This document shows, piece by piece, positions 3,652-31,703 of a stretch of DNA of 37,439 nt. The position numbers and the translations under genes were made by a program. The number at the start of each line of letters is the position of its first letter. Positions within the stretch are counted from its first letter, which is position 1. The stretch is from a virus (taxonomy: Duplodnaviria > Heunggongvirae > Uroviricota > Caudoviricetes): the IMG/VR virus record IMGVR_UViG_3300035688_000604. The stretch is one strand, 5' to 3'. The notes beneath the pieces were generated by a model. It was given only the letters and a program-made list of their open reading frames with translations, had not been told where the DNA came from and did no database searches.

Positions 3652-4086
3652 TTAAACTTTGACTTTCTTCTCTCGTAATAATTTACCAGCAGTTGTTTTC
3701 TCTGCTGGTGTGAATTTGACTTTACCAGTTTTCTTGATATAATCTACCATTGTATGCATCTTTATTTTTTCCTTTGATATGCTATCCTTAGTCTTCCAAG
3801 AACCTCTGACTTCCATCTCAAAATCTGGCTCTAACTTCTTATTCCTTGCATCAACTTTTAAAACCCAAGTCCTCATATCATATTCACTCGCTATGACTTC
3901 TGCAAACATCTTGGCAGATTTTAGATTATCCCAAAGATAAATATATTCTGGTCGGCTCTTCGCAGAAACAGTCGGAATATATTCTGGTAATTTTTTCTTT
4001 GGTTTAAGACCTTCAACAAGAATACCAAGAGTTTTTAAAGCATCGGCTACATGATACATCTCTGCCTTGTTAATTTTATGAACCAT
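3652..4086 (-). CDS. MVH-start protein, putative ADP-ribosyltransferase fold (Tpt1/KptA/DUF952-like)
   Basis: Starts MVHK; MYH...ILVEGLKP...YIYLW...A...VLKVD...PD...W...I..EKI pattern matches Tpt1/KptA-like ART domains by eye. Confidence 0.5.
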   Translation of the reverse strand: MVHKINKAEMYHVADALKTLGILVEGLKPKKKLPEYIPTVSAKSRPEYIYLWDNLKSAKMFAEVIASEYDMRTWVLKVDARNKKLEPDFEMEVRGSWKTKDSISKEKIKMHTMVDYIKKTGKVKFTPAEKTTAGKLLREKKVKV

Positions 4087-4088
4087 TT

Positions 4089-4271
4089 TTACACCTTTTT
4101 AATTACCTTAAAATTTTGATTTATAAGAACACGCCTGAAGTCTTTCATTTCTTTTTCATTCTTGAATTTCATAGTTAAACAATGCAAATGTAAATCTGCC
4201 TGAAATTTATTCGGATAAACAATAATCGTTGATGGAATCGATTTTCTATAATAAATAATCTTGTGAACCAT
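4089..4271 (-). CDS. MVH-start small basic protein (60 aa)
   Basis: ATGGTTCACAAG at 4271, 1 nt after the stop of the 810-aa gene; more likely start than 4322. Confidence 0.7.
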   Translation of the reverse strand: MVHKIIYYRKSIPSTIIVYPNKFQADLHLHCLTMKFKNEKEMKDFRRVLINQNFKVIKKV

Positions 4272-4272
4272 C

Positions 4273-6705
4273 TTATATTCCTTCGCCAGTTTTCTTACCA
4301 AATGAAGAGAATATAAAACCAAACATTGCAGTCACTGACAAAATAATGATAAAAATTGCAAGTGGCGGGCTCATACCTAATAAGAGATTACCCACACCTT
4401 CACCCACATCAGAAAGTGTGTCATTTAATTGTGTCGGCATACAAGAAAGACCGTATGATTTGATATAGTTCGTTGTGAAATTAAAAGATTCAAACAGTGG
4501 ATTGCATTTTATTGCAGTTGCGTTGAAAGTATAATTTATGTAGTAATCCCTAACAGCATCTGCATGATAACAATCAGATGGACAAGTTTCAACATATTCA
4601 AGACCGACCAAATCAATATCATTTGCTACTCCAGAAAATAATGTATTATCCTTGCTATCCTTCACGATGGCAATTGGATTGTTATTAGTAGTCAAATTCA
4701 CATACCAATATCTCCAAATTTCTGAAGTAGAATCACCAATATAATACAAACTTTCATCATCACCAAATGAACAGTTTATGCATGTCAAAGTCGTATCATA
4801 TAAAGCATAATTTTCTGTCAATCCAATAAACATGCTATCAGTGAAATTAAAATATTGATGCCAACTTGGATAAGAACCATCTAACCCCCAATCACTATCT
4901 CTGCTCACAACATTTCTTCCTGTGATATTTGAATTCTCATAAGTTATTTGATTTGTTTTAACATTCTCTAATTTCACATCCGCATCTGAAAAGAACATGG
5001 AAGAACCATTCTGCATATTCATATTTTTGAAAGTAACATTCTGGCAATTTTGACACATAACATACATCGTATCTTCGGTTATATCTTGATTGGAGATGTC
5101 TTTATGATAATATAGAGGTAATCCATTAGCAATATTGTTACTGAATTCTTGAGGAACAAAATATAAATCAACCGTCTTAAAAATGTAATTTTCAACTGGG
5201 TCATAAGCATTCGTCACTGTGAAATTATTATTTTTGATTGTTCCAGTTCTTGCTGAAGTATCCCAATTTGCAAATCCCCCCCTTGAAGTTATCACTGTAT
5301 TGTTAGCAAAAACAAAGTAATCACTGATATAATAGTCCCCAATGTCAGAAGACATAGAACCATTATAAAGCGTGTTATTTTCCACTAACGTATTGTTGAA
5401 ACCAACTAATCTTACCGCTCTATACTGTATATCAGAAGAAATGTTGTTATATTGAACTAAAGCATCAGTTCCATTTCGTAAATATACTCCATAATTGCCA
5501 TCAATCGTATTGTTTATGAAAGTTACACCATTAGAATTATCAACATAAACAATATAATTACCTGTGTTGTTATAGAAATTATTGCCTCTGAAAACATGAT
5601 TATAACCACCATCAAGCCATATTGCATACAGAGCATCATTTATATCATTATTTTCTATAGTCACGTTATCATAACTTCCATACCCCCCTGTAGATGCAAT
5701 TCCTATAGTCCAAGTTTTAAGTTTGCATCCGTTTATTGTTACGTTTGAATGACCCATTTCATATATCCCGTCTATCTCAGTATCTTTATAAACATCATAC
5801 GGTTCAACTCCAACAATCTCCGTTCCATTGCATTCTATATCTACATTGTCAGACATTATTTCTATAGCACCACAATGATAAGGTGGAGTTAAACAGTCTG
5901 TATCATTTATAATATAAGTCCCATTACAAAAATGATATGTTCCTGAAGAAGTTATTTCCAAATCACTTGTTGGTGTGACTCCACAATCTTGACAACAGTT
6001 TTGATAATTTTCATTTCCCTCACAAATATCATCCCCACAAATTGAATAATCCACTGACATTATCGGTGGATAATATCCACTAACAAGACATGGACAGTAT
6101 TGATAAGGGTCTTGAGTGCAAACCCAATCAGTTCCATTCCAACTAACAGAATTATCAGCAGGTTTGTCTTTTGAATTAGCCATCAAATATCCAACATAAT
6201 TAGCACCTGTATATGGGGTTATTGCAAAACTAACATAACCATCATTTTGATGTTTTAATGCAATTGGTAACACATCCCATGTCCAATTTAATTTTTGTCC
6301 ATTTCCATACGGAAAACCATAACTAAAAATATAATCCCCATAGGGTGGTTTATTAGTCCAATTAATCGTGTTCTCATCCCAACTTTGGTTTATTTCATAA
6401 AGGTATACATTAAATCCATTATGATTTAAATCGACTGTTAACCAATCAAAACAATCAGTAAAATTTGCATTAACCACACTTGAATTTTCTGGTAAGGTCA
6501 TATTAAATGCAAAGAATCCTTCAGCATCTCCAAAAGATGGGCTGGGTCTATCATCAACAGAAATCCATATTTTATCTCCACCCACACCACCATCATAAAA
6601 ATTAATATAAGCATCATCAATCGGAGTAAAATTTGCACCATAAAGAGCATTCACACTATTGAAAGAAAGACATAAAAAGAGAAATATTATGATGATTCTC
6701 TTCAT
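4273..6705 (-). CDS. Secreted surface/adhesin-like protein: DNRLRE-like domain, CGDxxC repeat, parallel beta-helix, conserved C-terminal anchor
   Basis: N-terminal signal peptide; DDAYIN...WDENTINWTNKP; CGDDICEGNENYQNCCQDCG; IxNN repeats; C-term TLSDVGEGVGNLLLGM + TM + GKKTGEGI. Confidence 0.85.
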   Translation of the reverse strand: MKRIIIIFLFLCLSFNSVNALYGANFTPIDDAYINFYDGGVGGDKIWISVDDRPSPSFGDAEGFFAFNMTLPENSSVVNANFTDCFDWLTVDLNHNGFNVYLYEINQSWDENTINWTNKPPYGDYIFSYGFPYGNGQKLNWTWDVLPIALKHQNDGYVSFAITPYTGANYVGYLMANSKDKPADNSVSWNGTDWVCTQDPYQYCPCLVSGYYPPIMSVDYSICGDDICEGNENYQNCCQDCGVTPTSDLEITSSGTYHFCNGTYIINDTDCLTPPYHCGAIEIMSDNVDIECNGTEIVGVEPYDVYKDTEIDGIYEMGHSNVTINGCKLKTWTIGIASTGGYGSYDNVTIENNDINDALYAIWLDGGYNHVFRGNNFYNNTGNYIVYVDNSNGVTFINNTIDGNYGVYLRNGTDALVQYNNISSDIQYRAVRLVGFNNTLVENNTLYNGSMSSDIGDYYISDYFVFANNTVITSRGGFANWDTSARTGTIKNNNFTVTNAYDPVENYIFKTVDLYFVPQEFSNNIANGLPLYYHKDISNQDITEDTMYVMCQNCQNVTFKNMNMQNGSSMFFSDADVKLENVKTNQITYENSNITGRNVVSRDSDWGLDGSYPSWHQYFNFTDSMFIGLTENYALYDTTLTCINCSFGDDESLYYIGDSTSEIWRYWYVNLTTNNNPIAIVKDSKDNTLFSGVANDIDLVGLEYVETCPSDCYHADAVRDYYINYTFNATAIKCNPLFESFNFTTNYIKSYGLSCMPTQLNDTLSDVGEGVGNLLLGMSPPLAIFIIILSVTAMFGFIFSSFGKKTGEGI

Positions 6706-10991: not shown

Positions 10992-10996
10992 TTAGA

Positions 10997-13303: not shown

Positions 13304-13350
13304 CATTTTGATGTCAAAACTATTTAAATTTTAAAAATAAAAAGATAGTC

Positions 13351-19857: not shown

Positions 19858-20190
19858 TCATCCCCAATAATAAAATAGACTCTCCAACGCTCCTCTTGCA
19901 ACTGAGCGTTTCTTCATCCCAAGTTTTTCAAGGAAATGTCTTTCAGACATCTCCAATGGCTCTGCTGGTTCTTTAACAATCTTGGCTGTTATACCAATCT
20001 TCTTGAATGATGGGTCTTTTTCCATCATCCATAAAGCATTCTCAGCATCCTCAAGATATTTTCTTTGCTCAAGCATTGGAAACCATCCTTTAGCGAATGG
20101 AAATACTTTCGTAAAAGTTTCTGGATATTTGATATATATTCTGTAAGACATTGCAATCTTTTTTCTTGGGTCGCCAATTCTATGAACCAT
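19858..20190 (-). CDS. MVH-start protein, paralog of 16015-16323
   Basis: MVHRIGDPRKKIAMSYRIY...LEQRKYLEDA...KIVKE...RGALES. Confidence 0.8.
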   Translation of the reverse strand: MVHRIGDPRKKIAMSYRIYIKYPETFTKVFPFAKGWFPMLEQRKYLEDAENALWMMEKDPSFKKIGITAKIVKEPAEPLEMSERHFLEKLGMKKRSVARGALESLFYYWG

Positions 20191-20198
20191 TTTATCGC

Positions 20199-20480
20199 CT
20201 AACCCAACGCTCTCATTTCCTCAGTTTTTTCTTCTGGTTTCTTTTCCGCTTCTTTGTGAGAACCACCAAGTGAATCCAAGAACTCGTCCATTGATTCTTC
20301 GTAATCATCTATTATGTCTTTCTCGTCTTCTGCTTCTTTCTTCTGAATTGCTTCGACTGGTTGCGGTTCTTCTTTTTTGAGTTCCTCGATTAGTGCCTTG
20401 TCTTTCTGAATCTCCTTCTCGAATTCTTTCATATCCTCTTCCAAATGAGCGATTATTTTTTCATGCATTTTATGAACCAT
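20199..20480 (-). CDS. MVH-start acidic coiled-coil protein
   Basis: ORF track; MVHKMHEK, E/K-rich. Confidence 0.75.
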   Translation of the reverse strand: MVHKMHEKIIAHLEEDMKEFEKEIQKDKALIEELKKEEPQPVEAIQKKEAEDEKDIIDDYEESMDEFLDSLGGSHKEAEKKPEEKTEEMRALG

Positions 20481-20708
20481 TTAAATTTTCACCTTTTTCA
20501 CGATATTAAAATCATAAATTGATTCTACTTTACCAGTAGGTAATTTAATATCAATAACATCTAAAGTTCCTTGATGTGGTGCATCTTCCATAATTTTTAC
20601 AATTGATTTAATTTTTAACCAGTTCGTAGCAGGATATGATTCTTTGAGACCTATACCTGTAGGTTCAACTAAAACAAAACTACCTTTTTTTATCCATTTA
20701 TGAACCAT
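20481..20708 (-). CDS. MVH-start small beta-rich (SH3/KOW-like) protein
   Basis: MVHKWIKKGSFVLV...; GGTGA RBS; fold call tentative. Confidence 0.7.
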   Translation of the reverse strand: MVHKWIKKGSFVLVEPTGIGLKESYPATNWLKIKSIVKIMEDAPHQGTLDVIDIKLPTGKVESIYDFNIVKKVKI

Positions 20709-20715
20709 ATTTTAT

Positions 20716-20889
20716 TCACCCCGCTAAAAACCAAGCAAGTGTCATAATCTTTTGTGCGTTCCTATATTGTTTAGGCGTATATTTTTCTCTATACTTGATT
20801 ATCCTTTCTGCCTTTAATATTTTCTTCTGGATGTCTGGCTCAAGATGTGATATTCCCATTTCTTCTGCTTTTGTAATTCTATGAACCAT
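20716..20889 (-). CDS. MVH-start micro-ORF (57 aa)
   Basis: Hand translation MVHRITKAEEMGISHLEPDIQ...LAWFLAG; TAATG coupling. Confidence 0.7.
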   Translation of the reverse strand: MVHRITKAEEMGISHLEPDIQKKILKAERIIKYREKYTPKQYRNAQKIMTLAWFLAG

Positions 20890-21029
20890 TACATCGACCT
20901 CTTTTTCATCTTTCTCAGCATATAACGCATCTTTCCTATCGTCCTGCTATGCATCTTCCTGAAATATTGCTCCATCGTGTTGCTAAATCTCTTCATTGTT
21001 ATCATTGAATCTTTTCGTTTATGAGCCAT
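20889..21029 (-). CDS. MAH-start basic micro-ORF (46 aa)
   Basis: MAHKRKDSMITMKRF...MKKRSM; TAATG overlaps at both ends. Confidence 0.7.
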   Translation of the reverse strand: MAHKRKDSMITMKRFSNTMEQYFRKMHSRTIGKMRYMLRKMKKRSM

Positions 21030-21259
21030 TATTCTTTCACACCCCATTTACCATTGAACTTATCACCGAATAATAAATTATCTTGCTCGTCTGTAATCTT
21101 AATCAGGTCTGGTTTGTATGTCTCGAATGAAATCGTCCCTTCTCTAACCATCTTTGCAATCTGTTCTGCATTGAGACCGACTTGCTCAGTCATCATGTTT
21201 CCAAACCAGACTATCCAAGTCTTCTCAGGTTTTTCTTCAATCTCGATTTTGTGAACCAT
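21029..21259 (-). CDS. MVH-start protein (76 aa)
   Basis: MVHKIEIEEKP...; ATG at 21259 overlaps the upstream TAA. Confidence 0.75.
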   Translation of the reverse strand: MVHKIEIEEKPEKTWIVWFGNMMTEQVGLNAEQIAKMVREGTISFETYKPDLIKITDEQDNLLFGDKFNGKWGVKE

Positions 21260-21405
21260 TACCAAGCACCATATTTTCTTTTAGCATCTTTTAATGATAT
21301 TCTTTTTTTATATCCTGTGGCATCTGATACATCATAATAATATCGCCTGCCTGAAATCATATCTATGAATAAATGATGACCTTCATTATGTTTTTTATGA
21401 ACCAT
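21259..21405 (-). CDS. MVH-start micro-ORF (48 aa)
   Basis: MVHKKHNEGHHLFIDMISGRRYYYDVSDATGYKKRISLKDAKRKYGAW. Confidence 0.7.
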   Translation of the reverse strand: MVHKKHNEGHHLFIDMISGRRYYYDVSDATGYKKRISLKDAKRKYGAW

Positions 21406-21407
21406 AA

Positions 21408-21557
21408 TTACCACTCATACGGATTAAAATATCCTTGACCTATTATCCAATTTAATTCTACTGTCGTTGGTTTTCTTCCAACTTCCTTCTTGAATAATCT
21501 TTCTAATTTTTCTACGTCTTCATAAGTCATTTTTCTCTTCACTTTAATTATATGCAT
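21408..21557 (-). CDS. MH-start micro-ORF (49 aa)
   Basis: MHIIKVKRKMTYEDVEKLERLFKKEVGRKPTTVELNWIIGQGYFNPYEW; TAATG coupling. Confidence 0.65.
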   Translation of the reverse strand: MHIIKVKRKMTYEDVEKLERLFKKEVGRKPTTVELNWIIGQGYFNPYEW

Positions 21558-21664
21558 TAACTTCCACCCAAACCTTTTTTCAATCTTCTTATATAATTGC
21601 TCATACCGCTATCGCTAAACATGTCTCCTACTCCCTTCTTCTTTTCGAGTTTGTGCATTCTCAT
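21557..21664 (-). CDS. Micro-ORF (MR)MHKLEKKKGVGDMF... (33-35 aa)
   Basis: ATG at 21664 (ATGA overlap) or at 21658 (gives MHK); fills the gap exactly. Confidence 0.55.
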   Translation of the reverse strand: MRMHKLEKKKGVGDMFSDSGMSNYIRRLKKGLGGS

Positions 21665-22299
21665 ACCCATTCAATTTTAGTTTCCTTCTTCCAGTTGTTA
21701 TTCTTCTTTGATTTTTCTTCTTTTTTTGGTAGCAGTAGTGAAGGTATCGTCTTAGTGACAAATTTTGACGCACCAGCAAGAGCCTCTTTTATTTTCGGAA
21801 CAGCCTCTTCCAATTCTTCCATGACAGGTTTCTTTACTGGTCGTTGCATATATATTTCAGGTGCTACTCCATGCTCTGGAACTTCAATTTCATGTGTCTC
21901 AATGAAAGGTATTCTTGGTCTCTCTTTTGGCAAAGCACCTTCCTCAATTTCCATTTTTGTCTTCTCAAGTTCTTTCTCCATAAGGTCTTTTCTGAGGTTG
22001 AATATCTCTTCCCTTTCTTCTTTCAATTTCTCTCGCTCTTCTTCTGCAAGGCTTTTCGCTTCATCGAGTTCCTCTTGTTTTTCTTCTGCCAAATCCTCTG
22101 CCTCTCTTTCTGCGTAATAGTTTTCGATTTGTTTGTTGAACTGCTCTATCTCCCTGTCTCTTTGTGCCAATTCTGTATCCATCTCTTCCAACCAACTCGA
22201 TGCACCATCTACAGTATCGAGTCTATGAATCCCTGCCTTATGATTGGCAGGCATTTTATCTACTTGAAACTTCATAGTGTCTGTTAATTTATGAACCAT
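21661..22299 (-). CDS. MVH-start acidic coiled-coil protein (212 aa)
   Basis: MVHKLTD; internal AGIHR; long E/K/R heptad region. Confidence 0.8.
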   Translation of the reverse strand: MVHKLTDTMKFQVDKMPANHKAGIHRLDTVDGASSWLEEMDTELAQRDREIEQFNKQIENYYAEREAEDLAEEKQEELDEAKSLAEEEREKLKEEREEIFNLRKDLMEKELEKTKMEIEEGALPKERPRIPFIETHEIEVPEHGVAPEIYMQRPVKKPVMEELEEAVPKIKEALAGASKFVTKTIPSLLLPKKEEKSKKNNNWKKETKIEWV

Positions 22300-22301
22300 A
22301 C

Positions 22302-22466
22302 TTACATCCTAAACTTTTTAGCCCATTCCACCAATCCTTGTTCCGCCTCATAATATTCTGCTGGCGTGACACCTGTATCTTCCTCTTTCTTTTTCTTTTT
22401 TAACAATTTTTGTAATCTTTTTATTGTTTTCTCTATCTCATGCTCAGTTTTTTGGAACGTGTGCAT
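22302..22466 (-). CDS. MH-start micro-ORF (54 aa)
   Basis: MHTFQKTEHEIEKTIKRLQKLLKKKKKEED...WAKKFRM; GGTGA RBS. Confidence 0.65.
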   Translation of the reverse strand: MHTFQKTEHEIEKTIKRLQKLLKKKKKEEDTGVTPAEYYEAEQGLVEWAKKFRM

Positions 22467-22474
22467 TACATCAC

Positions 22475-22696
22475 CTATTTACATTTTTTACATGATTTTT
22501 TCTTCTTAATAATTTTTTTCTTTTTGGTTTTCATTTTCTTTCCACCTACTTCTTTACCCGCTCTCTTCAGAGCACCTTTGACTGGTTCTGCTCCATGCTT
22601 CATAAGAGCAGTGTAAATCGGGACAGTAGCCATTCCACCGAACATACCACCCATTCCAGCACCGACATCGGAAAGACTTCCACTTATTGTATGCAA
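22475..22696 (-). CDS. MH-start protein homologous to the adhesin C-terminal anchor (73 aa)
   Basis: TTG start after GGTGA; SLSDVGAGMGGMFGGMA...GKEVGGK aligns without gaps to TLSDVGQGVGNLLLNMA...GKGIGGK; K-rich tail with CKKC. Confidence 0.7.
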   Translation of the reverse strand: MHTISGSLSDVGAGMGGMFGGMATVPIYTALMKHGAEPVKGALKRAGKEVGGKKMKTKKKKIIKKKKSCKKCK

Positions 22697-22700
22697 TCAA

Positions 22701-22994
22701 TCACCTTTTTTTTAATTTTACACTTGTCCCCCATTCACTCCAATCATGAATGTCTGTTTCTCCGCCCCCAACTGGCATAGTCCAAAATTCCCAATATCCT
22801 TTGAAAAATGTCTTGATTCTTTTTCTATCTTCTGGGTTCATTTCTTCCAAAGATTTTTCTGGGTCTAACACCCTTGTAACTTCTTCTTCACCATATCTCG
22901 TTTTTACAATATCCCCTTCCTCTGGGGGTCGTGACATTTCTGGCATTAACCTAAACCCATCAACTATTCTAACTTTTTTGATTTTGTGAACCAT
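22701..22994 (-). CDS. MVH-start protein (97 aa)
   Basis: ORF track; MVHKIKKVR. Confidence 0.75.
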   Translation of the reverse strand: MVHKIKKVRIVDGFRLMPEMSRPPEEGDIVKTRYGEEEVTRVLDPEKSLEEMNPEDRKRIKTFFKGYWEFWTMPVGGGETDIHDWSEWGTSVKLKKR

Positions 22995-23315
22995 TTAACC
23001 AGTCCTCTTTAATTCGACATTCATATCAATTATCTCATCCATTTGAACAACACCATAAGCAGTTCCAATCAGAGCGATTTTATTATGAGATGAAAATACT
23101 TCAAAATCTTTCTGGTAGAAATCTTCATCTTTGTTATGAATATCGAGACCGCCAACAGGGAAAACTATTTTGTATTTTGGACTCCATAATTTATGCCTTC
23201 TTAAAAGATACTCGATATTTTTTGCTACATTTTTGTCATTGAAATCTTGAAAAATATCTGTGAGTTCTAAAACTTCTTCCTCACTTATTTTCTTTCTCTT
23301 AATTTTATGAACCAT
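22995..23315 (-). CDS. MVH-start protein (106 aa)
   Basis: MVHKIKRKK; ATG overlaps the adhesin stop (TAATG). Confidence 0.75.
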   Translation of the reverse strand: MVHKIKRKKISEEEVLELTDIFQDFNDKNVAKNIEYLLRRHKLWSPKYKIVFPVGGLDIHNKDEDFYQKDFEVFSSHNKIALIGTAYGVVQMDEIIDMNVELKRTG

Positions 23316-26248
23316 TAGACCTTACCACCTATTCCTTTTCCAACCGATGCAATGACAAAACCAATCATCGCTGTAATTGAAAGTAGAATTATAAAGATAG
23401 CCATCGGTGAACTCATATTCAACAGAAGATTACCGACTCCTTGCCCCACATCAGATAAAGTATCGTTAACTCTGCCTGCTGGGACTGGGACTTCTAATTC
23501 CATCCAATATGTAAACTCTGGGTATGTCACTTTTGAAAAATTAACAGTCTCTTGCGGGTTGACTTCCATTGTATAAGAAGTTGAATTCCTATCCCTCTCA
23601 AGGCATATATAATTATCCCAATCAAAGTTGATGCAAGTTTCATCATAGTCATGTAGATAAGAAGAACTTGTCTTTCCATTATAACTTGTATTTTCTAATA
23701 AAACTTGAGTTCCATTAGCGAAAGTTACGTTGACTTGCTTGTTATCAGTAGGAACTCCATTCACTTTAACTCCAAATGGAATATCCCATGATTTGTAAAC
23801 CCATACTTGAGTGTCATTATCACCAACTAAAAAGACATCACCCGTATCAACATTAATCAAATATAAATTTGAAGAATCAATCTCTATATTCCAAACATCT
23901 CCTGTATTGTTTCTAAGTTGTGAGTTGACTATGGTTACGTTATTAACTCCAGTAATCCAAGTCCCTTCTTGCACATCAGAGCCATCATTGATTGTGACAT
24001 TATCCCACAACACGTTTGCCACTCCACTGACTACAATAGAATATCTTGGATAAGGTCTGTTGTAGTTCTTTAAAGTGAAACTATCTGCACCCGCCACCAT
24101 TATACAGTCAGTGTTTGGATTATCAAGAACAACATCTCCACTGAACCAATATTCCATCGGTTTGTTATTTAAGTAATTGTTAGAAAAATCGAGAGTATCA
24201 CAAGTATCATCATAATTACATAAGGTTTGTGTGCAATACATACTTGGTTCTTCGACTGTGTAGAAATCATTGTCTTTGACTTCGATGTTGTTTGCTCCAC
24301 CAAAAGTTGTTATGAAACCACCAGTCCCGTATGCAGTGTTGTTCAACACATGAATGTCGGAAGAAGATGCAGTTATTGAAAAGCCCATCCCTCTGGGAGA
24401 TGATGTTCCAAGAGTAGAGTTTATGAAATTGTTTATGAATGTTATGTTTTGAGCATTCCTCACTTGGCTTATCTGCCTTGAACTGATTATTCTGTTGTTC
24501 TCAACTATACCATTACTACTATATCTTGGGTCTATGAGCGTCCTTACATTACTCAAATCGTTGTTGCTTACGTTGAAACCATCTACATAATACAAATAGA
24601 AACCTATTTGGTTAGTAACCCCAGAAGACCATGCTAATGTGCAGTTGTTATCATATATGTTCCAATTGCTACTGTTATCAGGTGTTTCCACTCTCACACA
24701 ACGAGTATCTCCAGAACCAGTGAAGATATTGTTGTATATGTCTATATTGTTCGTGGTTTCAGGTAATGCAACAATGCCTTCCTGTGTATAATCATATATA
24801 TTGCTGTTCTTTACTACAACATTACTCCCCGCACTCAGGTCAACACCATAAGTGACTCTGAATAATTCACAATTGTCTATTTCGACATTGTTTGAACCTG
24901 CTCTTACTCCCTTATCAAAATCACTGACACGACAATTCTTTACGATACTACCCTCACCAGTTGATATACCTGCATCACCAGAAGTATCACCATCTATTAT
25001 ATAATTCTGGCAATCCAAAGTGATGTTAGTTCCTGTTATATCCATACAAGTCGATTCTGAAGAATCTGTTATATCAGCAGTCAAATAATATGTTGCTCCT
25101 ATTTGGTCTAAAACAGAACAATCTGAAATCTCTACTGTTGAATTAAAAATCCAATAAATCCCTTCTTCATAAGCGATAGAATTGACATCATGATAACTTA
25201 ACATTTCCCATGCTCCGTCATAGCATTGCCATCCAACTGCCCCACCTTCATCTATATATAAGTATAATTCATCGGGGTCATAATTGAAGCACGAATCTGG
25301 AATCGTTATATTATATGCGAATGGCATTGGGTATTCATCTTTCACTTGCCATATTGCTCCAGTCGCACCAAATGGTTTGATATAATCCATACCGCATTCT
25401 GGTGCATTATCGTAAGTGTCCCAGTCCCCATCTATAACATTCATACCAACTGAACAAGCACTATATCCTTCAGGTAAAGTTTCTGGGAATAAACTATCTG
25501 CATATTCTTGATATAAAGGAGTATAACCAAAGAAATCATAATTCATCGCTATCTCTGGCGGTGACAACGCATAATTAAAGATTTCAAATTCATCAATGTC
25601 TCCATCAAAAAACAAACCAAGACCATCTATTGAACCGACACTCAATTCACCGACATTATTCAATGAACCAACAGGGGTATCGGCTGTGACTATCGGTATC
25701 TTATCTATCCACATCTCCCAGTGCATGACATTTCTTAGGATAACTATCTGATGCCAGTAACCGTCCATCACGTTTGGCGAAGAAGGAGTTGATAATATAA
25801 CAGCCCCACCAAAACTATCACTCGCAATAAATTGTGGTTGGCAAGTATCTAATAAATATAACCAGTATCCGACTGATGCTGGAAAAACTGGTGCAGGTGG
25901 TATTGCCTTATGATATATAGTGCTACCATCCACACAACTTGTCATAGGATGTTTTGCTCTGACCCATATTTTTATTGTAAAAGTATCTACTGGGTCAAAA
26001 TCTAAAAATGGACTATTAGTGCAATTTACCCAGTCATTTATTCCATCATAACGAAGTGCATAATTATTAACTCCTGCAATCCAATCAGCAGAATTCATTC
26101 TTTCACAAGGAACAGGATAAAATTCATTTGCTATTATATTTCCACTACCTTCTTTGAATTTCCACCAATCAACTATTGATGGTGGTGCTAATACCGTAGG
26201 TATCGCTAACAAAAACATTGATGCAACTAACAACATTATTTTTTTCAT
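23315..26248 (-). CDS. Secreted LamG + beta-helix surface protein with conserved C-terminal anchor
   Basis: Start MKKIMLL (TAATG coupling); LamG domain highly similar to 11053-13242; C-term TLSDVGQGVGNLLLNMSSP + TM + GKGIGGKV. Confidence 0.85.
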   Translation of the reverse strand: MKKIMLLVASMFLLAIPTVLAPPSIVDWWKFKEGSGNIIANEFYPVPCERMNSADWIAGVNNYALRYDGINDWVNCTNSPFLDFDPVDTFTIKIWVRAKHPMTSCVDGSTIYHKAIPPAPVFPASVGYWLYLLDTCQPQFIASDSFGGAVILSTPSSPNVMDGYWHQIVILRNVMHWEMWIDKIPIVTADTPVGSLNNVGELSVGSIDGLGLFFDGDIDEFEIFNYALSPPEIAMNYDFFGYTPLYQEYADSLFPETLPEGYSACSVGMNVIDGDWDTYDNAPECGMDYIKPFGATGAIWQVKDEYPMPFAYNITIPDSCFNYDPDELYLYIDEGGAVGWQCYDGAWEMLSYHDVNSIAYEEGIYWIFNSTVEISDCSVLDQIGATYYLTADITDSSESTCMDITGTNITLDCQNYIIDGDTSGDAGISTGEGSIVKNCRVSDFDKGVRAGSNNVEIDNCELFRVTYGVDLSAGSNVVVKNSNIYDYTQEGIVALPETTNNIDIYNNIFTGSGDTRCVRVETPDNSSNWNIYDNNCTLAWSSGVTNQIGFYLYYVDGFNVSNNDLSNVRTLIDPRYSSNGIVENNRIISSRQISQVRNAQNITFINNFINSTLGTSSPRGMGFSITASSSDIHVLNNTAYGTGGFITTFGGANNIEVKDNDFYTVEEPSMYCTQTLCNYDDTCDTLDFSNNYLNNKPMEYWFSGDVVLDNPNTDCIMVAGADSFTLKNYNRPYPRYSIVVSGVANVLWDNVTINDGSDVQEGTWITGVNNVTIVNSQLRNNTGDVWNIEIDSSNLYLINVDTGDVFLVGDNDTQVWVYKSWDIPFGVKVNGVPTDNKQVNVTFANGTQVLLENTSYNGKTSSSYLHDYDETCINFDWDNYICLERDRNSTSYTMEVNPQETVNFSKVTYPEFTYWMELEVPVPAGRVNDTLSDVGQGVGNLLLNMSSPMAIFIILLSITAMIGFVIASVGKGIGGKV

Positions 26249-26595
26249 TACCATTCACCATATTCAATTTCTTCTTTTTCTTTTTTTGGTGGAAGCGTGA
26301 CTCTTATAGGTCTTCTTGTCGGCTCTCTGTGAAGTATTCTTTCTTGAACGAATGCCCTTCCTTTCTTCAATGCCCTTGCAGTATCTCTTGCAATTTTTTG
26401 AGCCTTTGCATAATATCTAACTGCACTTTGATACATCTCTACTGCTTCTTTTGCTTGACGCTCATACTCTTTCTTCTGCCTATCAACCCAATCTTCTTCA
26501 CTTTCTTCTTTTCCAACCTCTACGCCAAATCTTTTCAAGTCTTCCTCAAAAGACTTCATCGCATCTTTTGGTTCTCTCTTCTTTTTATGAACCAT
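26248..26595 (-). CDS. MVH-start charged helical protein (115 aa)
   Basis: MVHKKKREPK; TAATG at both ends. Confidence 0.75.
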   Translation of the reverse strand: MVHKKKREPKDAMKSFEEDLKRFGVEVGKEESEEDWVDRQKKEYERQAKEAVEMYQSAVRYYAKAQKIARDTARALKKGRAFVQERILHREPTRRPIRVTLPPKKEKEEIEYGEW

Positions 26596-27446
26596 TATTT
26601 TTCACCCTTCATCTTCTTTATTTTTTTAATAGCCTCTGGGATTATTTTCTCCATCGGTTCTCCTTTTTGCAGTTTGTCCACAAACTCAACGAAGACTTTA
26701 TCTTCGACTGTTCCTTTTGATGGGTCAGTCCCAGTTAATGCAGTGAACTTGAATTTTTCTGGGTCACGATGAACTTTTAATAAATTATTGACAATTTTCT
26801 TGACTTTTGTTGAGTCTTTTTTCTGAACGAAGAAATCATATCCAGAAGAAAATACATTTGAAGTCCTTGAAAAAACTTTTGCATAGGCTACTTTCATATC
26901 ACCCAATTCTTTTGTCAGTTTTTCATCGAAATCTTCCAAGTCACCAGCATCTTCAGACATAGATAATATGCAATCGGAATGAACATTGACCCAATCTTTG
27001 CTTGTTACTTCATAATATCCACGCCATGCATCAGTAGAATGCCATTCAACTTCAAAATCACCTTGAGTCTCATCGGTGTAATGACATATAGCATGAGGAT
27101 ATGTATCGCCACCTTCCTCTGACTCATCCATCGGTGCTTGTGGATAATTGTAATAATAAACCGTTGCAGAAGGTTCTTCGGTATCATACTCAACTAACGC
27201 ATCAGAATCTCCTTTTGCCTTTTCTTCTGCATCTTCCTTTGTCAGTTCTCCTTTCTCATATTTTTCTTTGTAGTCGTTATAAATATCTCTGACTTCTTTT
27301 TCCCATTCATCTGTGTTTATATCTGGAAAATATGTTAATGAACTCTTGAAATCATCAAACGATTTGAAGTCTGATTTGTGCTTTCCAGCCTTATGTATTC
27401 CTCTCCCTGTCCTTGATATTTTATCTTTTTTTATTAAGTGAACCAT
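26595..27446 (-). CDS. MVH-start phage-type hypothetical protein (283 aa)
   Basis: MVHLIKK...GRGIHK; TDAWRGYY and SNVFSSG motifs resemble phage hypothetical families. Confidence 0.75.
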   Translation of the reverse strand: MVHLIKKDKISRTGRGIHKAGKHKSDFKSFDDFKSSLTYFPDINTDEWEKEVRDIYNDYKEKYEKGELTKEDAEEKAKGDSDALVEYDTEEPSATVYYYNYPQAPMDESEEGGDTYPHAICHYTDETQGDFEVEWHSTDAWRGYYEVTSKDWVNVHSDCILSMSEDAGDLEDFDEKLTKELGDMKVAYAKVFSRTSNVFSSGYDFFVQKKDSTKVKKIVNNLLKVHRDPEKFKFTALTGTDPSKGTVEDKVFVEFVDKLQKGEPMEKIIPEAIKKIKKMKGEK

Positions 27447-27447
27447 T

Positions 27448-27822
27448 TTATACCCACTCCTGTTTTAATTTGTAAGCACCTTCATGGCTGTAACTTCCGT
27501 CTGGATTTCTGTATAAATGTTCTGAAAGACCATAGACTACATGAAATCCCATATCCATACCAGCACCAGATACCCTCAAACCATCCCTGTCCATATCTCT
27601 TTTATAACCAAGAACTTTTTCTATATACCAATCTATACTTCTCGGTCTGCCATCCTTTCCTATCACAAAACAACTTATGACCCTGAACATACCAGAAGAA
27701 CTGACATGCCTCAAGATAGTATAAACCTTGTAATCAGATTCCTCTAAAATCTTTTTTAACTCATTCTCTGCCTGAGCAAGTTCTTGTTCCTTCAAACCTT
27801 TTTTCCTTATCTTGTGAACCAT
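27448..27822 (-). CDS. MVH-start protein of a conserved phage hypothetical family (GMDMGF motif)
   Basis: VYTILRHVSSSGMFRVI...VSGAGMDMGFHVVYGLS; true start at 27822 (TGATG coupling). Confidence 0.75.
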   Translation of the reverse strand: MVHKIRKKGLKEQELAQAENELKKILEESDYKVYTILRHVSSSGMFRVISCFVIGKDGRPRSIDWYIEKVLGYKRDMDRDGLRVSGAGMDMGFHVVYGLSEHLYRNPDGSYSHEGAYKLKQEWV

Positions 27823-28298
27823 CAATCCCACCATGACCTAATTATTTTCCCGCCTTCTTGTTTTACGAATGGGGCAGGGGCTTTTTTTACTAATCCAACT
27901 TCATCGGCTTCTCCAGTTTTTTTTAATTCTCTCATTATTCTTTGCGGATTATGCCCTTCAGGTTTTATGTAAATGACAACAGAAGATTCTCTTCCCAGTT
28001 TTGTTCTTGCTTTAGGAAATTTCTTCAATATAGAATAAACATTTTCAGGTTCAAACTGATTATACACGCCAGCAATCTTTGCAACTTTTAACCAATCTTC
28101 AGGTATCATATAGGAAGTTCCTTTCCATTTAAGGTTTCTTGTTTGATATGCAATTTTTTCTTCTTTTGGGGTTGATTTTCCTGTTATAAAAGAATCAGCG
28201 TAAGCAACTTTAGTTTTCTCTATTTCTTTTTGAATATCATATTTATGGATTCCTCTACCAAACTTTATTTTCCTTAATTTCATAATTTTGTGAACCAT
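27822..28298 (-). CDS. MVH-start protein (158 aa)
   Basis: MVHKIMK...GRGIHK; YNQF...GRESSVVIYI...ADE. Confidence 0.75.
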   Translation of the reverse strand: MVHKIMKLRKIKFGRGIHKYDIQKEIEKTKVAYADSFITGKSTPKEEKIAYQTRNLKWKGTSYMIPEDWLKVAKIAGVYNQFEPENVYSILKKFPKARTKLGRESSVVIYIKPEGHNPQRIMRELKKTGEADEVGLVKKAPAPFVKQEGGKIIRSWWD

Positions 28299-28510
28299 TA
28301 AACTCTCAACCTCAATCTTCTTCTTTCTTTTTCTAATTTTTCTGGATGTATGAATTCAGGAATTACTCCCTCTTCAGTTTCCCTTCCGACTTCTTTTATG
28401 CTTTTCCCGCTAATCGTTCTGAGACCTCTTATGAAAGCAAGGTTCATTCGTAACTGTCCTTCTAACTCTCCTTTCGTCTCTCCATAAGTCCTGTCAAACA
28501 TGTGAGACAT
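28298..28510 (-). CDS. MSH-start protein (70 aa)
   Basis: MSHMFDRTYGE; ATG at 28510 overlaps the upstream TAA; more likely start than 28561. Confidence 0.65.
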   Translation of the reverse strand: MSHMFDRTYGETKGELEGQLRMNLAFIRGLRTISGKSIKEVGRETEEGVIPEFIHPEKLEKERRRLRLRV

Positions 28511-28722
28511 TATTCTTCTTCCTCTTCTTCTTTTTCTTCTTCCAAACCCATCTCCTTCCAAGTGTCTTCCATTTCTTTTACTACTGATTCCCCTTCTCTA
28601 CTTGCACCCTCACCAAACTCTTCAAGACTCTTCATCTCATTCGTCATATCTTTCCATTCAGCATCCAATTTTCTTTCATATTCAGAGAGTGCATCCGTTT
28701 CTCTAACTTTTTTATGAACCAT
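28510..28722 (-). CDS. MVH-start acidic protein (70 aa)
   Basis: MVHKKVRETD...EEEKEEEEE. Confidence 0.7.
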   Translation of the reverse strand: MVHKKVRETDALSEYERKLDAEWKDMTNEMKSLEEFGEGASREGESVVKEMEDTWKEMGLEEEKEEEEEE

Positions 28723-28724
28723 AA

Positions 28725-28865
28725 TCATTCATCCTCTTCAAACATTTTTTCTCTTTCTTTATCGAGTTTCGCCACGAAGTTTGTCTGATAATCAATCATA
28801 GCACCGAGAGATTTTACAATCTCAATATCTTTCTTCAATTCTTTTTTTGGTTTTTTATGAACTAT
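28725..28865 (-). pseudogene. MVH-type ORF with ATA in place of ATG (46 codons): non-canonical start or pseudogene
   Basis: TAATAGTTCATAAAAAA at the position where neighbours have TAATGGTTCAT; open frame (I)VHKKPKKELKKD...MFEEDE. Confidence 0.55.
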
Positions 28866-29212
28866 TATCTCATCCTCTTTATTTTTCCAGTCTTCTCATC
28901 GACTTTCAATGAGAACTTTTTTTCATACAACGGTCTCCATGATGAAGCACCAAATATCGGGTCTGGCTCAAAACTTATCTTCTGACCAATGACATTCTCA
29001 TAGATTTTTTTGTTTGAAACATAAGGAAAATTCGTAGAACTAATATCGAATGCGTCATCTATACCATCACGCATAGGTCTCCAATCACCTGATATTGTTA
29101 TCATCCTACCGCTTGGTGTTTTTACATCCATACTCCACATAGTTCCCATATCATGGACTGACATGATTATTCCAGTATTTTCAACCTTTGATTTTTTTAT
29201 TCTATGAACCAT
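28865..29212 (-). CDS. MVH-start OB/beta-rich protein (115 aa)
   Basis: ORF track; MVHRIKKSK; fold tentative. Confidence 0.75.
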   Translation of the reverse strand: MVHRIKKSKVENTGIIMSVHDMGTMWSMDVKTPSGRMITISGDWRPMRDGIDDAFDISSTNFPYVSNKKIYENVIGQKISFEPDPIFGASSWRPLYEKKFSLKVDEKTGKIKRMR

Positions 29213-29218
29213 AAATTA

Positions 29219-29368
29219 TCACACCGTTACATTTTTGGGTAATTTTTTAAAAGTTTTCCCATCATACAAAAATAATTCTCCTTTTTGATTTTCGTAAACA
29301 TCTATTTTTGTGTCATGCCCTATTAACATTCCTTTTTGTTTCCAATCCTTTGTTATTTTATGAACCAT
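29219..29368 (-). CDS. MVH-start micro-ORF (49 aa)
   Basis: MVHKITKDWKQKGMLIGHDTKIDVYENQKGELFLYDGKTFKKLPKNVTV. Confidence 0.7.
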   Translation of the reverse strand: MVHKITKDWKQKGMLIGHDTKIDVYENQKGELFLYDGKTFKKLPKNVTV

Positions 29369-29372
29369 CAAA

Positions 29373-29513
29373 TCATCTCTTTCTTTTTAATTCATCATGC
29401 ATATTTTCATTAACAACCCACAATCTATCCGAATAATGTTTATAACTATCTAAATCCCTTTTCTTTATTTTTTCAAGATTTTTTTCGATGTCTTTTAATA
29501 ATCTATGAACCAT
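29373..29513 (-). CDS. MVH-start micro-ORF (46 aa)
   Basis: MVHRLLKDIEKNLEKIKKRDLDSYKHYSDRLWVVNENMHDELKRKR; TAATG coupling. Confidence 0.7.
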   Translation of the reverse strand: MVHRLLKDIEKNLEKIKKRDLDSYKHYSDRLWVVNENMHDELKRKR

Positions 29514-30082
29514 TATACCATCTCCTTCACGACTTCAGCATCAGTCGTTATTGGAATACCGCCACGCTCAACATTTTTTTCGCTTAATCCTTTCATCTCT
29601 CCAGTCAATCTCTTGCATTCTTTTTCAGCACTTTCTTTTGTCTTGTAAACTTTCGGGTCTAATGTCTTCGGCATTCCAGCCATAGGACTCCATTTGATTC
29701 TCCATTTTCCAGTCCATATTGGCTCTCTTATTCTTGGACGCAATTGTGTCCAAGTAGTATTGACTGAATAACCATCATAAGTTCTGAAATACCATTTACT
29801 ATTCATGTGAACAAGATTTTCTTCCCAGTTTGTTTCATCTTCATCTCCTTCATAACTGAGTTGTTGGTCAAAATCAGCAAAACCATCTAAATAATTATGT
29901 TCAAATTTATTGGCATTGCCATAATCCCAAGATTCAACAGCATCGAAAGGTTGTTCCTTATCAAGATAATTTAGAAGTTGTTTTTTAGACATCTTTTTTA
30001 TTTTATCAAAGAATTCCTTCTCAAGTTTATGGATTCCTCTAACTGAATATGCACTACCCTCTTTTTTTTTCATCCTATGCAA
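29513..30082 (-). CDS. MH-start protein (189 aa)
   Basis: TTG-CAT-AGG-ATG; RGIHK at residues 15-19; VYKTKESAEKEC motif. Confidence 0.7.
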   Translation of the reverse strand: MHRMKKKEGSAYSVRGIHKLEKEFFDKIKKMSKKQLLNYLDKEQPFDAVESWDYGNANKFEHNYLDGFADFDQQLSYEGDEDETNWEENLVHMNSKWYFRTYDGYSVNTTWTQLRPRIREPIWTGKWRIKWSPMAGMPKTLDPKVYKTKESAEKECKRLTGEMKGLSEKNVERGGIPITTDAEVVKEMV

Positions 30083-30097
30083 TTTTTACACCAACCT

Positions 30098-30637
30098 TTA
30101 TTTTCTTTCAGGCATAGCCTTTGCTCTTGCTTCTGGAGACATTGACATCCATTCTTTTCTTGCAGGTTCTGTCATTGCAAGTTTTTCTGCTCCTGTCATC
30201 AGATTTTTCTTGACATATTCTCTGTCAGCCACAAACTTTGGCAACGCACCATCAGTATGTTTTCTGAAAACTGTCTGTGCTTGCAACATCTTGAAAACAC
30301 TTGGAGCACCGAATTCTTTTTCTGCTGAACGCAATGCTCTTCTTCTCTGTTCTTCTGAGAAATGAATTCCATATCCATGTTTCTTCAAAGCACCTTTTCT
30401 TGAAATTTTGATTATTTTCTTTCCTCTACCTAACAAACCAACATCAGGTCTGTGTTGCGTCTTTCCTTTGACACCCCATGTCATCTTTTTTCTCTTTGCT
30501 GTGAACACTTTACCTTTCCTGTGGATTTTCCATTCCATTGTCTTCGCTCTTGCAGTAGTCGGTTTTATGACTACCTTTAATTTAGGTCTCCCAAAACCAA
30601 GCGTAACGGCTTTGGTCTTCTTAACTTTGTGAACCAT
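30098..30637 (-). CDS. MVH-start very basic protein with a giant-virus-like C-terminal domain
   Basis: MVHKVKK at 30637; GALKKHGY...RRRAL..A.KEFG..SVFKML.A..VFRK...F.ADREYV recalls an NCLDV family of unknown function (DUF5771-like, from memory). Confidence 0.6.
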   Translation of the reverse strand: MVHKVKKTKAVTLGFGRPKLKVVIKPTTARAKTMEWKIHRKGKVFTAKRKKMTWGVKGKTQHRPDVGLLGRGKKIIKISRKGALKKHGYGIHFSEEQRRRALRSAEKEFGAPSVFKMLQAQTVFRKHTDGALPKFVADREYVKKNLMTGAEKLAMTEPARKEWMSMSPEARAKAMPERK

Positions 30638-30660
30638 CTTTCTCAACCATTAATTTTTAA

Positions 30661-30819
30661 TTACAAACCCAACTTAGTAGCCTTAGCCTTCGCTTCAGAC
30701 TCTGAAGTTAGACCGCCAGCGACAATCTTCCATTCTCCGAACTTCCCAATCTTATCAGGATTCTGCTCGAAGACAGTCCATCTTTTGGTCTTTGGGTTTT
30801 CTTTAACCATGTGAACCAT
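30661..30819 (-). CDS. MVH-start micro-ORF (52 aa)
   Basis: MVHMVKENPKTKRWTVFEQ...GLTSESEAKAKATKLGL; GAGGT RBS. Confidence 0.7.
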   Translation of the reverse strand: MVHMVKENPKTKRWTVFEQNPDKIGKFGEWKIVAGGLTSESEAKAKATKLGL

Positions 30820-30830
30820 ATTTATTTACC

Positions 30831-30986
30831 TCAAACTCTTTTAAATCCAATACCAATATCTTTCAAAGTTCTAACAATAGTTTTTGCTTCACCAATTGAT
30901 TTTGGATAATTATCATGAAATTCATCTATTAGATTATCAACAGTGTTTATGACATCTTTCTCAATTTTAGTGAATTTATGAACCAT
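30831..30986 (-). CDS. MVH-start micro-ORF (51 aa)
   Basis: MVHKFTKIEKDVINTVDNLIDEF...IGFKRV; GGTGA RBS. Confidence 0.7.
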   Translation of the reverse strand: MVHKFTKIEKDVINTVDNLIDEFHDNYPKSIGEAKTIVRTLKDIGIGFKRV

Positions 30987-30990
30987 ATTT

Positions 30991-31092
30991 TCACCTTTTC
31001 TCAAATACAAATACCATACTTTTTCCTTCCCGATACCAGTCTATCGGATACCATCGATTAGGTATTTCTACTCTCCTCTTCATTCTATGCAA
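30991..31092 (-). CDS. MH-start micro-ORF (33 aa)
   Basis: TTG-CAT-AGA-ATG: MHRMKRRVEIPNRWYPIDWYREGKSMVFVFEKR. Confidence 0.55.
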   Translation of the reverse strand: MHRMKRRVEIPNRWYPIDWYREGKSMVFVFEKR

Positions 31093-31097
31093 ATTAA

Positions 31098-31436
31098 TTA
31101 CCTTGCGACTAATCCATATTTTGGAATGTGTGTAGGTCTTGCAAGGACTGTCTTTGTCTTAGATGATTTTAGTTTACTGAATACCGAAGGATATTTTCCT
31201 TTGAACTTCTTGACTGGATGCATCATTCTTTGGACTCTTGTTCCAGCAGTAAACGTAGAATCTGCAAACAACGGTATGAAACCGTCAGTCTTTAACGCTT
31301 CCTTTGGGACTCCTATTGTAAACTTGTATCCGCCACTCTCGATAGTCCTGAAACTTTTTGGATGAAATAGTTCTGGAGAGTAGAATCTCTCCATTACGAA
31401 TTTCTTTCCCAAATGGAATTTATGTTTGTGTGCCAT
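31098..31436 (-). CDS. MAH-start basic protein (112 aa)
   Basis: ORF track; MAHKHKFH. Confidence 0.75.
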   Translation of the reverse strand: MAHKHKFHLGKKFVMERFYSPELFHPKSFRTIESGGYKFTIGVPKEALKTDGFIPLFADSTFTAGTRVQRMMHPVKKFKGKYPSVFSKLKSSKTKTVLARPTHIPKYGLVAR

Positions 31437-31577
31437 TTATCTTCCCTTTTTCTTGAAAATCACTTTAACCATATTTGGTTGCATCTCGTCAGGCTCTGCT
31501 TTAACGAATTCAAATCCTTCTGGTATAAAGACAGTCCTATGCTTGACATTCTTGTGTTTCACATATTTGTGAGCCAA
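31437..31577 (-). CDS. MAH-start micro-ORF (46 aa)
   Basis: TTG-GCT-CAC-AAA after GAGGTGG; MAHKYVKHKNVKHRTVFIPEGFEF...KKKGR. Confidence 0.6.
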   Translation of the reverse strand: MAHKYVKHKNVKHRTVFIPEGFEFVKAEPDEMQPNMVKVIFKKKGR

Positions 31578-31703
31578 TCATTCCACCTCTTTATCTTCTT
31601 CTTCAGGTTTGTTAGCATTCTCCTCTTCTAAAATAGCCTCTGGAGAAATCGGAAGAACGACACCTTCATCGGTGTTACCGTTAGTTCCGTTAGTCTTGTG
31701 CAT
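31578..31703 (-). CDS. MH-start acidic micro-ORF (41 aa), first gene of the array
   Basis: MHKTNGTNGNTDEGVVLPISPEAILEEENANKPEEEDKEVE, directly after promoter copy 3. Confidence 0.55.
   Translation of the reverse strand: MHKTNGTNGNTDEGVVLPISPEAILEEENANKPEEEDKEVE

Follow-up and report, generated by a model that had tools for sequence, protein, structure and literature searches.

A short N-terminal X-His-(Lys/Arg) tag shared by arrays of mostly unrelated small proteins in an uncultivated archaeal virus- or plasmid-like element

Among the described systems that resemble the locus reported here is the capsid targeting sequence (CTS) of T4, an N-terminal peptide of about 10 residues. It docks on the scaffolding core, and the prohead protease cleaves it off at an L/I-x-E site. 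The T4 internal proteins (IPI, IPII, IPIII and Alt) are diverse, fast-evolving and otherwise unrelated accessory and defence proteins that share only this sequence and one destination (PMC3012670). The stretch of DNA analysed in this study, referred to as the window (IMG/VR record IMGVR_UViG_3300035688_000604, 37,439 nucleotides), belongs to an archaeal element, virus- or plasmid-like and uncultivated, whose DNA occurs in metagenomes of sediment and peat; no RNA data set was listed as containing it. The window matches two longer contigs, one of 101 kb and one of 91 kb from JGI. Between positions 3652 and 31703 the minus strand of the window carries 36 small genes whose products begin with Met, one small residue or none, and His, usually followed by Lys or Arg. 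As with the T4 CTS, a short common N-terminus is found on diverse, fast-evolving and unrelated proteins that are encoded by clustered genes. The tag described here differs in its length of only 3-5 residues, apparently counted from the processed terminus, in its archaeal host and in the dozens of members carried by each element. A T4-type CTS was rejected as its identity because conservation ends after residue 5 and no x-x-E site is shared.

Several other systems read very short peptides near a protein terminus. N-degrons recognized by N-recognins (ClpS, UBR) and the IAP-binding motif (A-V-P-I, bound by BIR domains) consist of 1-4 residues counted from a free alpha-amine that Met excision or endoproteolysis generates. 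None of them is known to use X-His or to label a viral gene arsenal, however, and we know of no reader of this type in archaea or their viruses. Plasmodium PEXEL and oomycete RxLR place a motif of 4-5 residues near the N-terminus of many unrelated effectors, and cleavage of PEXEL makes the new terminus the signal, which parallels the possible unmasking of an internal G|IHK copy considered below. In contrast to the present tag, which is accompanied by neither a signal peptide nor a hydrophobic segment, PEXEL and RxLR stand behind a Sec signal peptide and function within the secretory pathway of eukaryotes. X-His metal sites (GHK, HypA MHE, RcnR, NmtR) likewise combine a free amine with a His in second (or third) position, and their exact register matters; these sites belong to single dedicated metalloproteins with extra ligands, whereas here dozens of unrelated proteins carry the motif, with a conserved basic and a hydrophobic residue behind it. 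At the coding start, ATG-NNT-CAC-AAA has a surface likeness to the downstream box of the pCold element (MNHKV). A downstream box was rejected because it is a nucleotide-level element, whereas here the nucleotides vary freely and the peptide is kept (the relative L047 recodes it). Integron-like cassettes were rejected as well, with no attC-type repeat between -40 and +30 of the starts, junctions of 0-23 nucleotides and no integrase domain found in the window. A search of the literature on MVHK, on the protein family DUF5771 and on archaeal-virus N-terminal motifs returned no description of the tag, in agreement with the initial annotation, which was made from the sequence alone and knew of no described system like this.

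Recounting of the tagged starts returned the tally given in the initial annotation, with 36 genes divided into 23 MVH, one ATA-VH, three MAH, one MSH and eight MH starts. All 23 MVH members begin ATG-GTT-CAY. The MAH starts lie at 31577 (a TTG start), 31436 and 21029, the MSH start at 28510, and the MH starts at 31703, 31092, 30082, 22696, 22466, 21658, 21557 and 15982, those at 31092, 30082 and 22696 using TTG as start codon. From 31703 down to 19858 every small gene is tagged (32/32, again as originally counted); stop-to-start spacing ranges from -1 to +23 nucleotides, 12 of the junctions are TAATG overlaps, and the sole interruption is the gene of a 979-residue surface protein. On one side of this interruption lies a run of 18 butt-joined genes with products of 33-283 residues (26248..31703), which includes the ATA member at 28865 and the DUF5771 protein at 30098-30637, and on the other a run of 14 butt-joined genes with products of 33-212 residues (19858..23315). 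Four further members start at 16323, 15982, 4271 and 4086. These are an MVHKI gene of 102 residues (16015..16323), which is a paralog of 19858-20190; an MH-start gene of 39 residues (15863..15982), which follows a TATA-like stretch, has no Shine-Dalgarno sequence (SD) and is the weakest member of the set; an MVHKI gene of 60 residues (4089..4271) directly after the gene of an 810-residue surface protein; and an orphan MVHKI gene of 144 residues (3652..4086), whose single database match is its own 92% variant.

Of the 89 non-redundant tags collected from the window and its relatives, 73 have Lys or Arg directly after the His. In the gene bodies only 1.7% of the residues are His, which excludes a chance origin of the tag. 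An all-against-all BLASTP comparison with the first 6 residues trimmed recovered a single paralog pair (16323 and 20190, 48.5% identical), and the claim that the proteins are unrelated apart from one such pair was thereby confirmed. In the arrays of relatives every gene likewise carries the tag, including two with misplaced gene-caller starts. The initial annotation had also called for a count of His at residues 2 and 3 over the full contig, and in the window this count confines the tag to the arrays with one exception, a plus-strand gene at 335 (MHT). The product of this gene (335-1069) starts MHTEKE behind a good SD and has weak methyltransferase-like Pfam matches; it may be a chance case or a lone tagged gene.

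In the aligned starts, examined from -40 to +30, the information content resides in the SD and in the stretch from +1 to +14, with nothing but the SD conserved upstream. The codons of the tag are initially suggestive of a nucleotide signal. Val codons of the tag in the window and six low-GC relatives number 61 GTT, 4 GTG, 0 GTA and 0 GTC, while gene-body Val is encoded by 38% GTT, 12% GTG, 27% GTA and 23% GTC; in the window alone, tag Val is GTT in 24 of 24 cases. The sites GTAC and GGWCC are absent from the window (0 observed against 58.5 and 20.5 expected) and from every low-GC relative. GTA and GTC are barred from the tag, as a GTAC site would arise in ATG-GTA-CAY and a GGTCC site in ATG-GTC-CAY. 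Gene-body Val codons that precede a C number 34 GTT, 13 GTC, 5 GTG and 0 GTA. The GTT excess is thus accounted for by GTAC/GGWCC avoidance plus codon context, with no nucleotide constraint left over. The His codon shows no excess either, CAC being used in 49% of tags and in 43% of body His residues that precede an A. The relative L047 (GC content 47%, ATPase 63% identical) has 20 GGTCC sites and no GTAC site, and its tag Val codons are GTT in 6, GTC in 6 and GTG in 2 cases, with one additional MTH and one MAHR whose Arg is encoded by CGA. Comparison of these codons indicates that the tag is selected as a peptide and not as a DNA or RNA motif, as the initial annotation had proposed for a protein-level tag. 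A general lesson is that extreme restriction-site avoidance can disguise a protein-level motif as a DNA-level one.

Site avoidance in this lineage extends to other restriction sites. AGCT, CCGG, CGCG, CTAG, GATC, GCGC, GGCC, GTAC and GGWCC are absent throughout the window, GATC with 0 occurrences against 118 expected. The relatives (L003, L006, L010, L020, L021 and L044-L047) avoid differing subsets; some of these relatives have GATC or AGCT at normal levels, and all of them lack GTAC and GGCC. This pattern points to hosts with many restriction-modification systems, in lineage-specific sets. A hairpin that sequesters the SD, in which GUGA(A) of the SD pairs with (U)UCAY of the tag, was considered and dropped, GTGA being found in only about one third of the upstream regions.

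To describe the register of the tag, residue 2 was scanned with codon 2 left unconstrained. All M-X-H tags (74/74) have V, A, S, G or P as X, and L047 contributes T; I, L, F and D, each a single mutation away from GTT, gave zero cases. In the remaining members codon 2 is absent, resulting in M-H. Methionine aminopeptidase excises Met before V, A, G, S, T or P and retains it before His, and an Ile at residue 2 would block the excision. Residue 2 is always excision-permissive or absent, and His would therefore be the second residue of every mature protein. The reasoning of the initial annotation on this point stands, with Met removal as its presumed step. If the methionine aminopeptidase rule applies, every array member combines a free alpha-amine with His2 as in GHK-type X-His sites. 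The amino-terminal Cu(II)- and Ni(II)-binding (ATCUN) arrangement NH2-X-X-His was rejected, since His would fall at position 2 both in MH proteins, which should keep their Met, and in M-(small)-H proteins after the presumed excision.

A second copy of the motif is found inside some of the tagged proteins. The 10 tagged proteins with G-I-H-K/R represent at least 8 unrelated families and have the motif in all cases at residues 14-25, with varying codons; shuffled tagged proteins give an expectation of 0.9, and the untagged proteins contain none in 25.7 thousand residues. Ile is invariant in this internal copy and never occupies N-terminal residue 2. Minus-strand examples in the window are G-I-H-K at residues 16-19 of the genes starting at 28298 (28242..28253), 27446 (27390..27401) and 30082 (30026..30037) and G-I-H-R at residues 23-26 of the gene starting at 22299 (22222..22233). 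A transmembrane (TM) segment or a hydrophobic 19-residue window is present in the five surface proteins and in none of the 35 tagged proteins. Sec, Tat and class III (prepilin) signal peptides were ruled out by the same lack of a hydrophobic h-region in the 35 proteins. We regard a selected peptide tag in N-terminal register as well supported and very likely.

The DUF5771 protein is the single payload with a Pfam family, and its relatives illustrate the distribution of the tag. Among its orthologues His3 is invariant, residue 2 is V, A or none, and indels occur directly after the tag. A profile search found the tag in 8 of 155 DUF5771 cluster representatives, all of them the closest relatives, while the other 147 have ordinary MAK, MGR or MPR-type starts. 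Genes next to the remote DUF5771 homologues (loci L011-L019) are untagged as well. These comparisons indicate that the tag is lineage-specific and was added within the lineage, and they bear out, for this one payload, the expectation that homologues elsewhere would lack it. A homologue search with the 3652-4086 payload returned only its own 92% variant, and Pfam and PHROGs searches left nearly all payloads without a name, apart from DUF5771 and a weak endolysin-like match for 21661-22299. Searches for relatives of the window gave no megablast match among phage records, none in the viral-contig collection by protein or pattern search and none in the genome-contig collection, where a double-tag DNA pattern had chance bacterial matches only.

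Gene content between relatives differs by whole-gene blocks that end within about 30 nucleotides of the tag starts. Recombination may exploit the common start, as these whole-gene shifts suggest, but it cannot maintain the tag. A 47-nucleotide leader (28253-28299 in the window, 9638-9684 in L006; MVHKIMKL.K...) is 83% identical in two non-orthologous genes, which suggests that leaders are exchanged or duplicated independently of their payloads.

Directly upstream of the array lies a conserved untagged module of seven minus-strand genes (32597..37227), and in 9 of the 9 loci compared the tagged array is immediately preceded by these seven genes, with their order unchanged. The module consists of a P-loop ATPase, four membrane proteins and two soluble proteins, and the tag is physically linked to it. 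The array is also butt-joined to genes of large surface proteins, and both are preceded by one type of promoter-like element. Untagged genes of the operon encode signal-peptide or TM proteins, the ATPase and homing endonucleases. As judged from these predictions, the tag is confined to soluble proteins.

Virion packaging or ejection, a modification site and a metal site had been named in the initial annotation as candidate functions. We propose that the tag serves as an address. Met excision from M-V/A/G/S/T/P-H starts, or Met retention in M-H starts, would place NH2-(V/M, rarely A/G/S/T/P)-His-(K/R)-hydrophobic on every member, and in longer members cleavage after the Gly of the internal G-I-H-K would expose the same kind of terminus. 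One reader protein would bind the alpha-amino group together with the imidazole of His2, comparable to the reading of processed termini by N-recognins or BIR domains; both Met removal and the existence of this reader are inferred. A rapidly changing set of soluble accessory proteins would thereby acquire a common fate, most likely sorting, by loading into particles or vesicles or by export via the adjacent ATPase and membrane-protein module, with the tagged proteins made together with the surface proteins of the element. An address tag read from the processed N-terminus by one reader, probably for sorting or packaging via the module, is our tentative proposal and falls a little short of probable. 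That the outcome is sorting (packaging or export) through the adjacent module is suggested by gene linkage, by presumed co-transcription with the surface proteins and by analogy to the T4 internal proteins, and we treat it as a real possibility rather than a probability. In its most complete form the proposal would be a new sorting code, NH2-(V/M/I)-His-(K/R), made by Met excision or G|IHK cleavage, with the upstream ATPase/membrane machine routing more than 60 interchangeable effectors into particles, vesicles or the outside; this form is rather unlikely.

Several points weigh against the address proposal. The reader protein is hypothetical, and neither the ATPase nor the 142-residue module protein has an informative structural match or could be placed in a subfamily. 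With Pfam and PHROGs, no capsid, portal, protease or scaffold gene was recognized in the window and no prohead protease, scaffold or capsid gene in the regions flanking the loci of relatives, which so far leaves packaging without a structural partner. About 65 cargo proteins per element are many for a packaged set, and 3-5 residues offer very little sequence for specific docking. The proposal also assumes that Met is excised before Val and that cleavage takes place at G|IHK, and proximity of genes is by itself weak evidence that they are functionally connected.

Other explanations place the signal in the nucleic acid or require no signal at all. The conserved block ATGGTTCAYAAA could act as a downstream-box-like enhancer, a RegA-like repressor operator or a recombination site, with the peptide as a by-product. 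The invariant GTT of the window, far above the 38% body share, and the restriction of the motif to +1 to +14 would fit such a role, as would the resemblance to the pCold leader ATGAATCACAAAGTG, which encodes MNHKV, and the homology blocks among relatives that stop near gene starts. The GTT excess disappears, however, once GTAC/GGWCC avoidance is allowed for, and L047 retains the peptide with GTC, GTG, ACC and CGA codons. Variation obeys the genetic code, with wobble Y in the His codon, AAA, AAG, AGA, AGG or CGA for Lys/Arg, a codon 5 of the form nTn and a codon 2 that specifies only small residues and can be deleted altogether in the MH class. Only the SD is conserved upstream, and the internal G-I-H-K copies lie far from start codons. 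A nucleotide-level signal is thus already largely refuted and very improbable. The tag might also be functionless and simply inherited as cassettes recombine at a common start, which would agree with the block boundaries near the tag starts and with the leader common to two non-orthologous genes. This explanation does not account for a His that is invariant in orthologues at 55-60% identity with saturated synonymous sites, for a peptide that survives a GC shift from 34% to 47% with recoded codons, or for substitutions at residue 2 that stay within one chemical class; passive inheritance is already disfavoured and we give it hardly any credence. A translation optimum at the peptide level, in which MVHK-hydrophobic-K gives fast early elongation or low drop-off and arises convergently in each cistron without a reader, fits the translational coupling, strong SDs and A-rich early codons of these genes. 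Verma et al. in 2019 reportedly found that codons 3-5 strongly affect yield in bacteria, which would favour such an optimum. The untagged soluble ATPase, the 142-residue protein and the 85-residue protein of the same element do without the peptide, though, the small-or-none rule and the avoidance of Ile at residue 2 have no obvious translational reason, and the internal G-I-H-K cannot influence initiation. We consider a translation optimum quite unlikely.

Two further explanations accept a peptide read at the terminus and assign it a different fate. The first residues could form an amino-terminal X-His site, composed of amine, amide N and His imidazole, and bind a metal ion (Ni(II), Cu(II) or Zn(II)), with metal-bridged docking, metal sequestration or redox chemistry as its role. 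His always adjoins the presumed free amino terminus, one relative encodes M-G-H-K, which would mature to GHK, and the samples come from sediment and peat, habitats of nickel-rich methanogens. Chemical plausibility is provided by RcnR, NmtR and HypA, which bind Ni through the N-terminal amine and His2 or His3, and by the altered Ni site of HypA after insertion of one residue before the His (PMC7055735). On the other hand, the tagged proteins have no other common metal ligand, the conserved Lys/Arg and hydrophobic residue are left unexplained, and so is the need of about 65 unrelated proteins for a metal. Isolated X-His sites bind Ni weakly, and Cu(II) is scarce in anoxic sediment. We consider such a metal site unlikely. 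Alternatively, the tag could be an N-degron or anti-degron that sets a common half-life for an expression class, for example by clearing early proteins or by shielding small proteins from aminopeptidases or the proteasome. As in N-degron pathways, the motif is very short and counted from the processed N-terminus, and its carriers are small, soluble, fast-evolving and encoded in one operon. Against this, we know of no archaeal N-recognin, the presumably co-transcribed surface proteins look late or structural rather than early, and a degron gives a poor account of the internal G-I-H-K and of the constant linkage to the ATPase/membrane module. A role in protein half-life is likewise improbable.

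The main advances of this analysis are the explanation of GTT by restriction avoidance, the recoded relative as a natural control, the contrast between Val and Ile, which supports Met excision, the tag-specific internal G-I-H-K and the invariant upstream module. If one reader recognizes a processed N-terminus of three residues on dozens of otherwise unrelated proteins, the tag would be shorter than any known protein address label, and no sorting or N-terminal recognition code would have been described before it for viruses or plasmids of archaea. The accessory arsenal of an uncultivated lineage, probably devoted to host take-over or anti-defence, would then be identifiable from sequence alone, and a minimal tag (VHK) would be transferable to reporters.

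The genes of the upstream module encode, in order, a 256-residue protein with two TM helices, a small TM protein, an 85-residue Zn-ribbon protein, a 140-residue TM protein, a 76-residue TM protein, a 142-residue helical protein and the P-loop ATPase. The ATPase has Walker A (GxTRSGKST) and Walker B (DEQTE) motifs and a Cys cluster. Its predicted fold (predicted local distance difference test, pLDDT, 62) gave generic RecA/KaiC-like matches only, a profile search against PDB sequences gave no match, and its nearest atlas clusters are viral P-loop proteins, of which a minority carry Zot or AAA domains; we take this as a lead only. The ATPase gene (32597-33602) is interrupted at 33170-33220 (minus strand) by a hairpin-forming insertion of about 31 nucleotides with a stop codon. 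The insertion sits between a conserved W-C and H-(I)-P-H-E-F and causes a +1 frameshift; it is missing from intact homologues and could be a mini-intron or a disruption. In relatives the ATPase gene contains inteins (L006, L008) or is split (L007). The 142-residue protein (34480-34908), encoded directly before the ATPase, has an all-helical model (pLDDT 80) with weak fold matches, all with E above 0.06, to a small terminase subunit (E about 0.2-0.3), prefoldin and MarR. The arrangement of the two genes recalls the order of small and large terminase genes and may serve as a lead only.

Five large surface proteins, as a group characterized by signal peptides, Laminin_G_3 and beta-helix domains and a C-terminal membrane anchor, are encoded on the minus strand at 4273-6705, 6702-10991, 11053-13242, 16323-19856 and 23315-26254. 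The protein that interrupts the array (23315..26254, 979 residues) is untagged and has a signal peptide, a Laminin_G_3 domain, a beta-helix and a C-terminal TM anchor; its gene is part of the same operon and has TAATG overlaps. The untagged 1177-residue protein (16323..19856) has a signal peptide, a beta-helix and a C-terminal TM anchor. An atlas search for the host or taxon with a surface protein returned no match. The C-termini of the surface proteins are nearly identical, with …VGNLLL.M…, a TM helix and a G/K-rich tail, and a tagged 73-residue protein (22475-22696) carries a related but non-hydrophobic version of this module.

An archaeal-type promoter-like element (31737..31782, minus strand) lies just upstream of the first tagged gene and consists of a purine-rich run resembling a B recognition element (BRE), TTTAAATA and, about 25 nucleotides downstream of TTTAAATA, a TATATA-rich stretch. 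The window contains three copies, before the array and before the surface-protein genes starting at 13242 (about 13250-13330) and 10991 (10998-11055). The array copy is 84-87% identical to that at 10998-11055 and to L006 8811-8879, and the first gene behind it (31703) has no SD. Neither tRNA genes nor Rfam families were detected in the window.

Three homing-endonuclease-like genes are inserted in the operon on the minus strand (33773-34477, 31794-32564 and 15087-15863), the first inside the module and the second just outside its span. NUMOD3 and DUF559/Vsr-like domains are encoded by two of them, and the DNA sequence of the third is related. The untagged soluble genes of the operon consist mainly of these three.

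The ATA member of the array (28725-28865, minus strand) begins ATA-GTT-CAT at a TAATA junction where others have TAATG. Apart from ATA in the place of ATG, the junction fits the TAATGGTTCAT type perfectly, and the difference looks like a G-to-A substitution in a canonical TAATG overlap. The gene has either been silenced recently or is initiated at ATA through coupling. At the other end of the tagged proteins, Trp occurs within the last four residues in 8 of 35 cases against 2.6 expected (p = 0.003), with endings such as ...EWV, ...GEW, ...YEW and ...GAW (sites 27822-27834, 26595-26607 and 21661-21672). The excess is probably a by-product of the SD of the next gene (GGTG, GAGTGG), which lies inside the upstream coding region.

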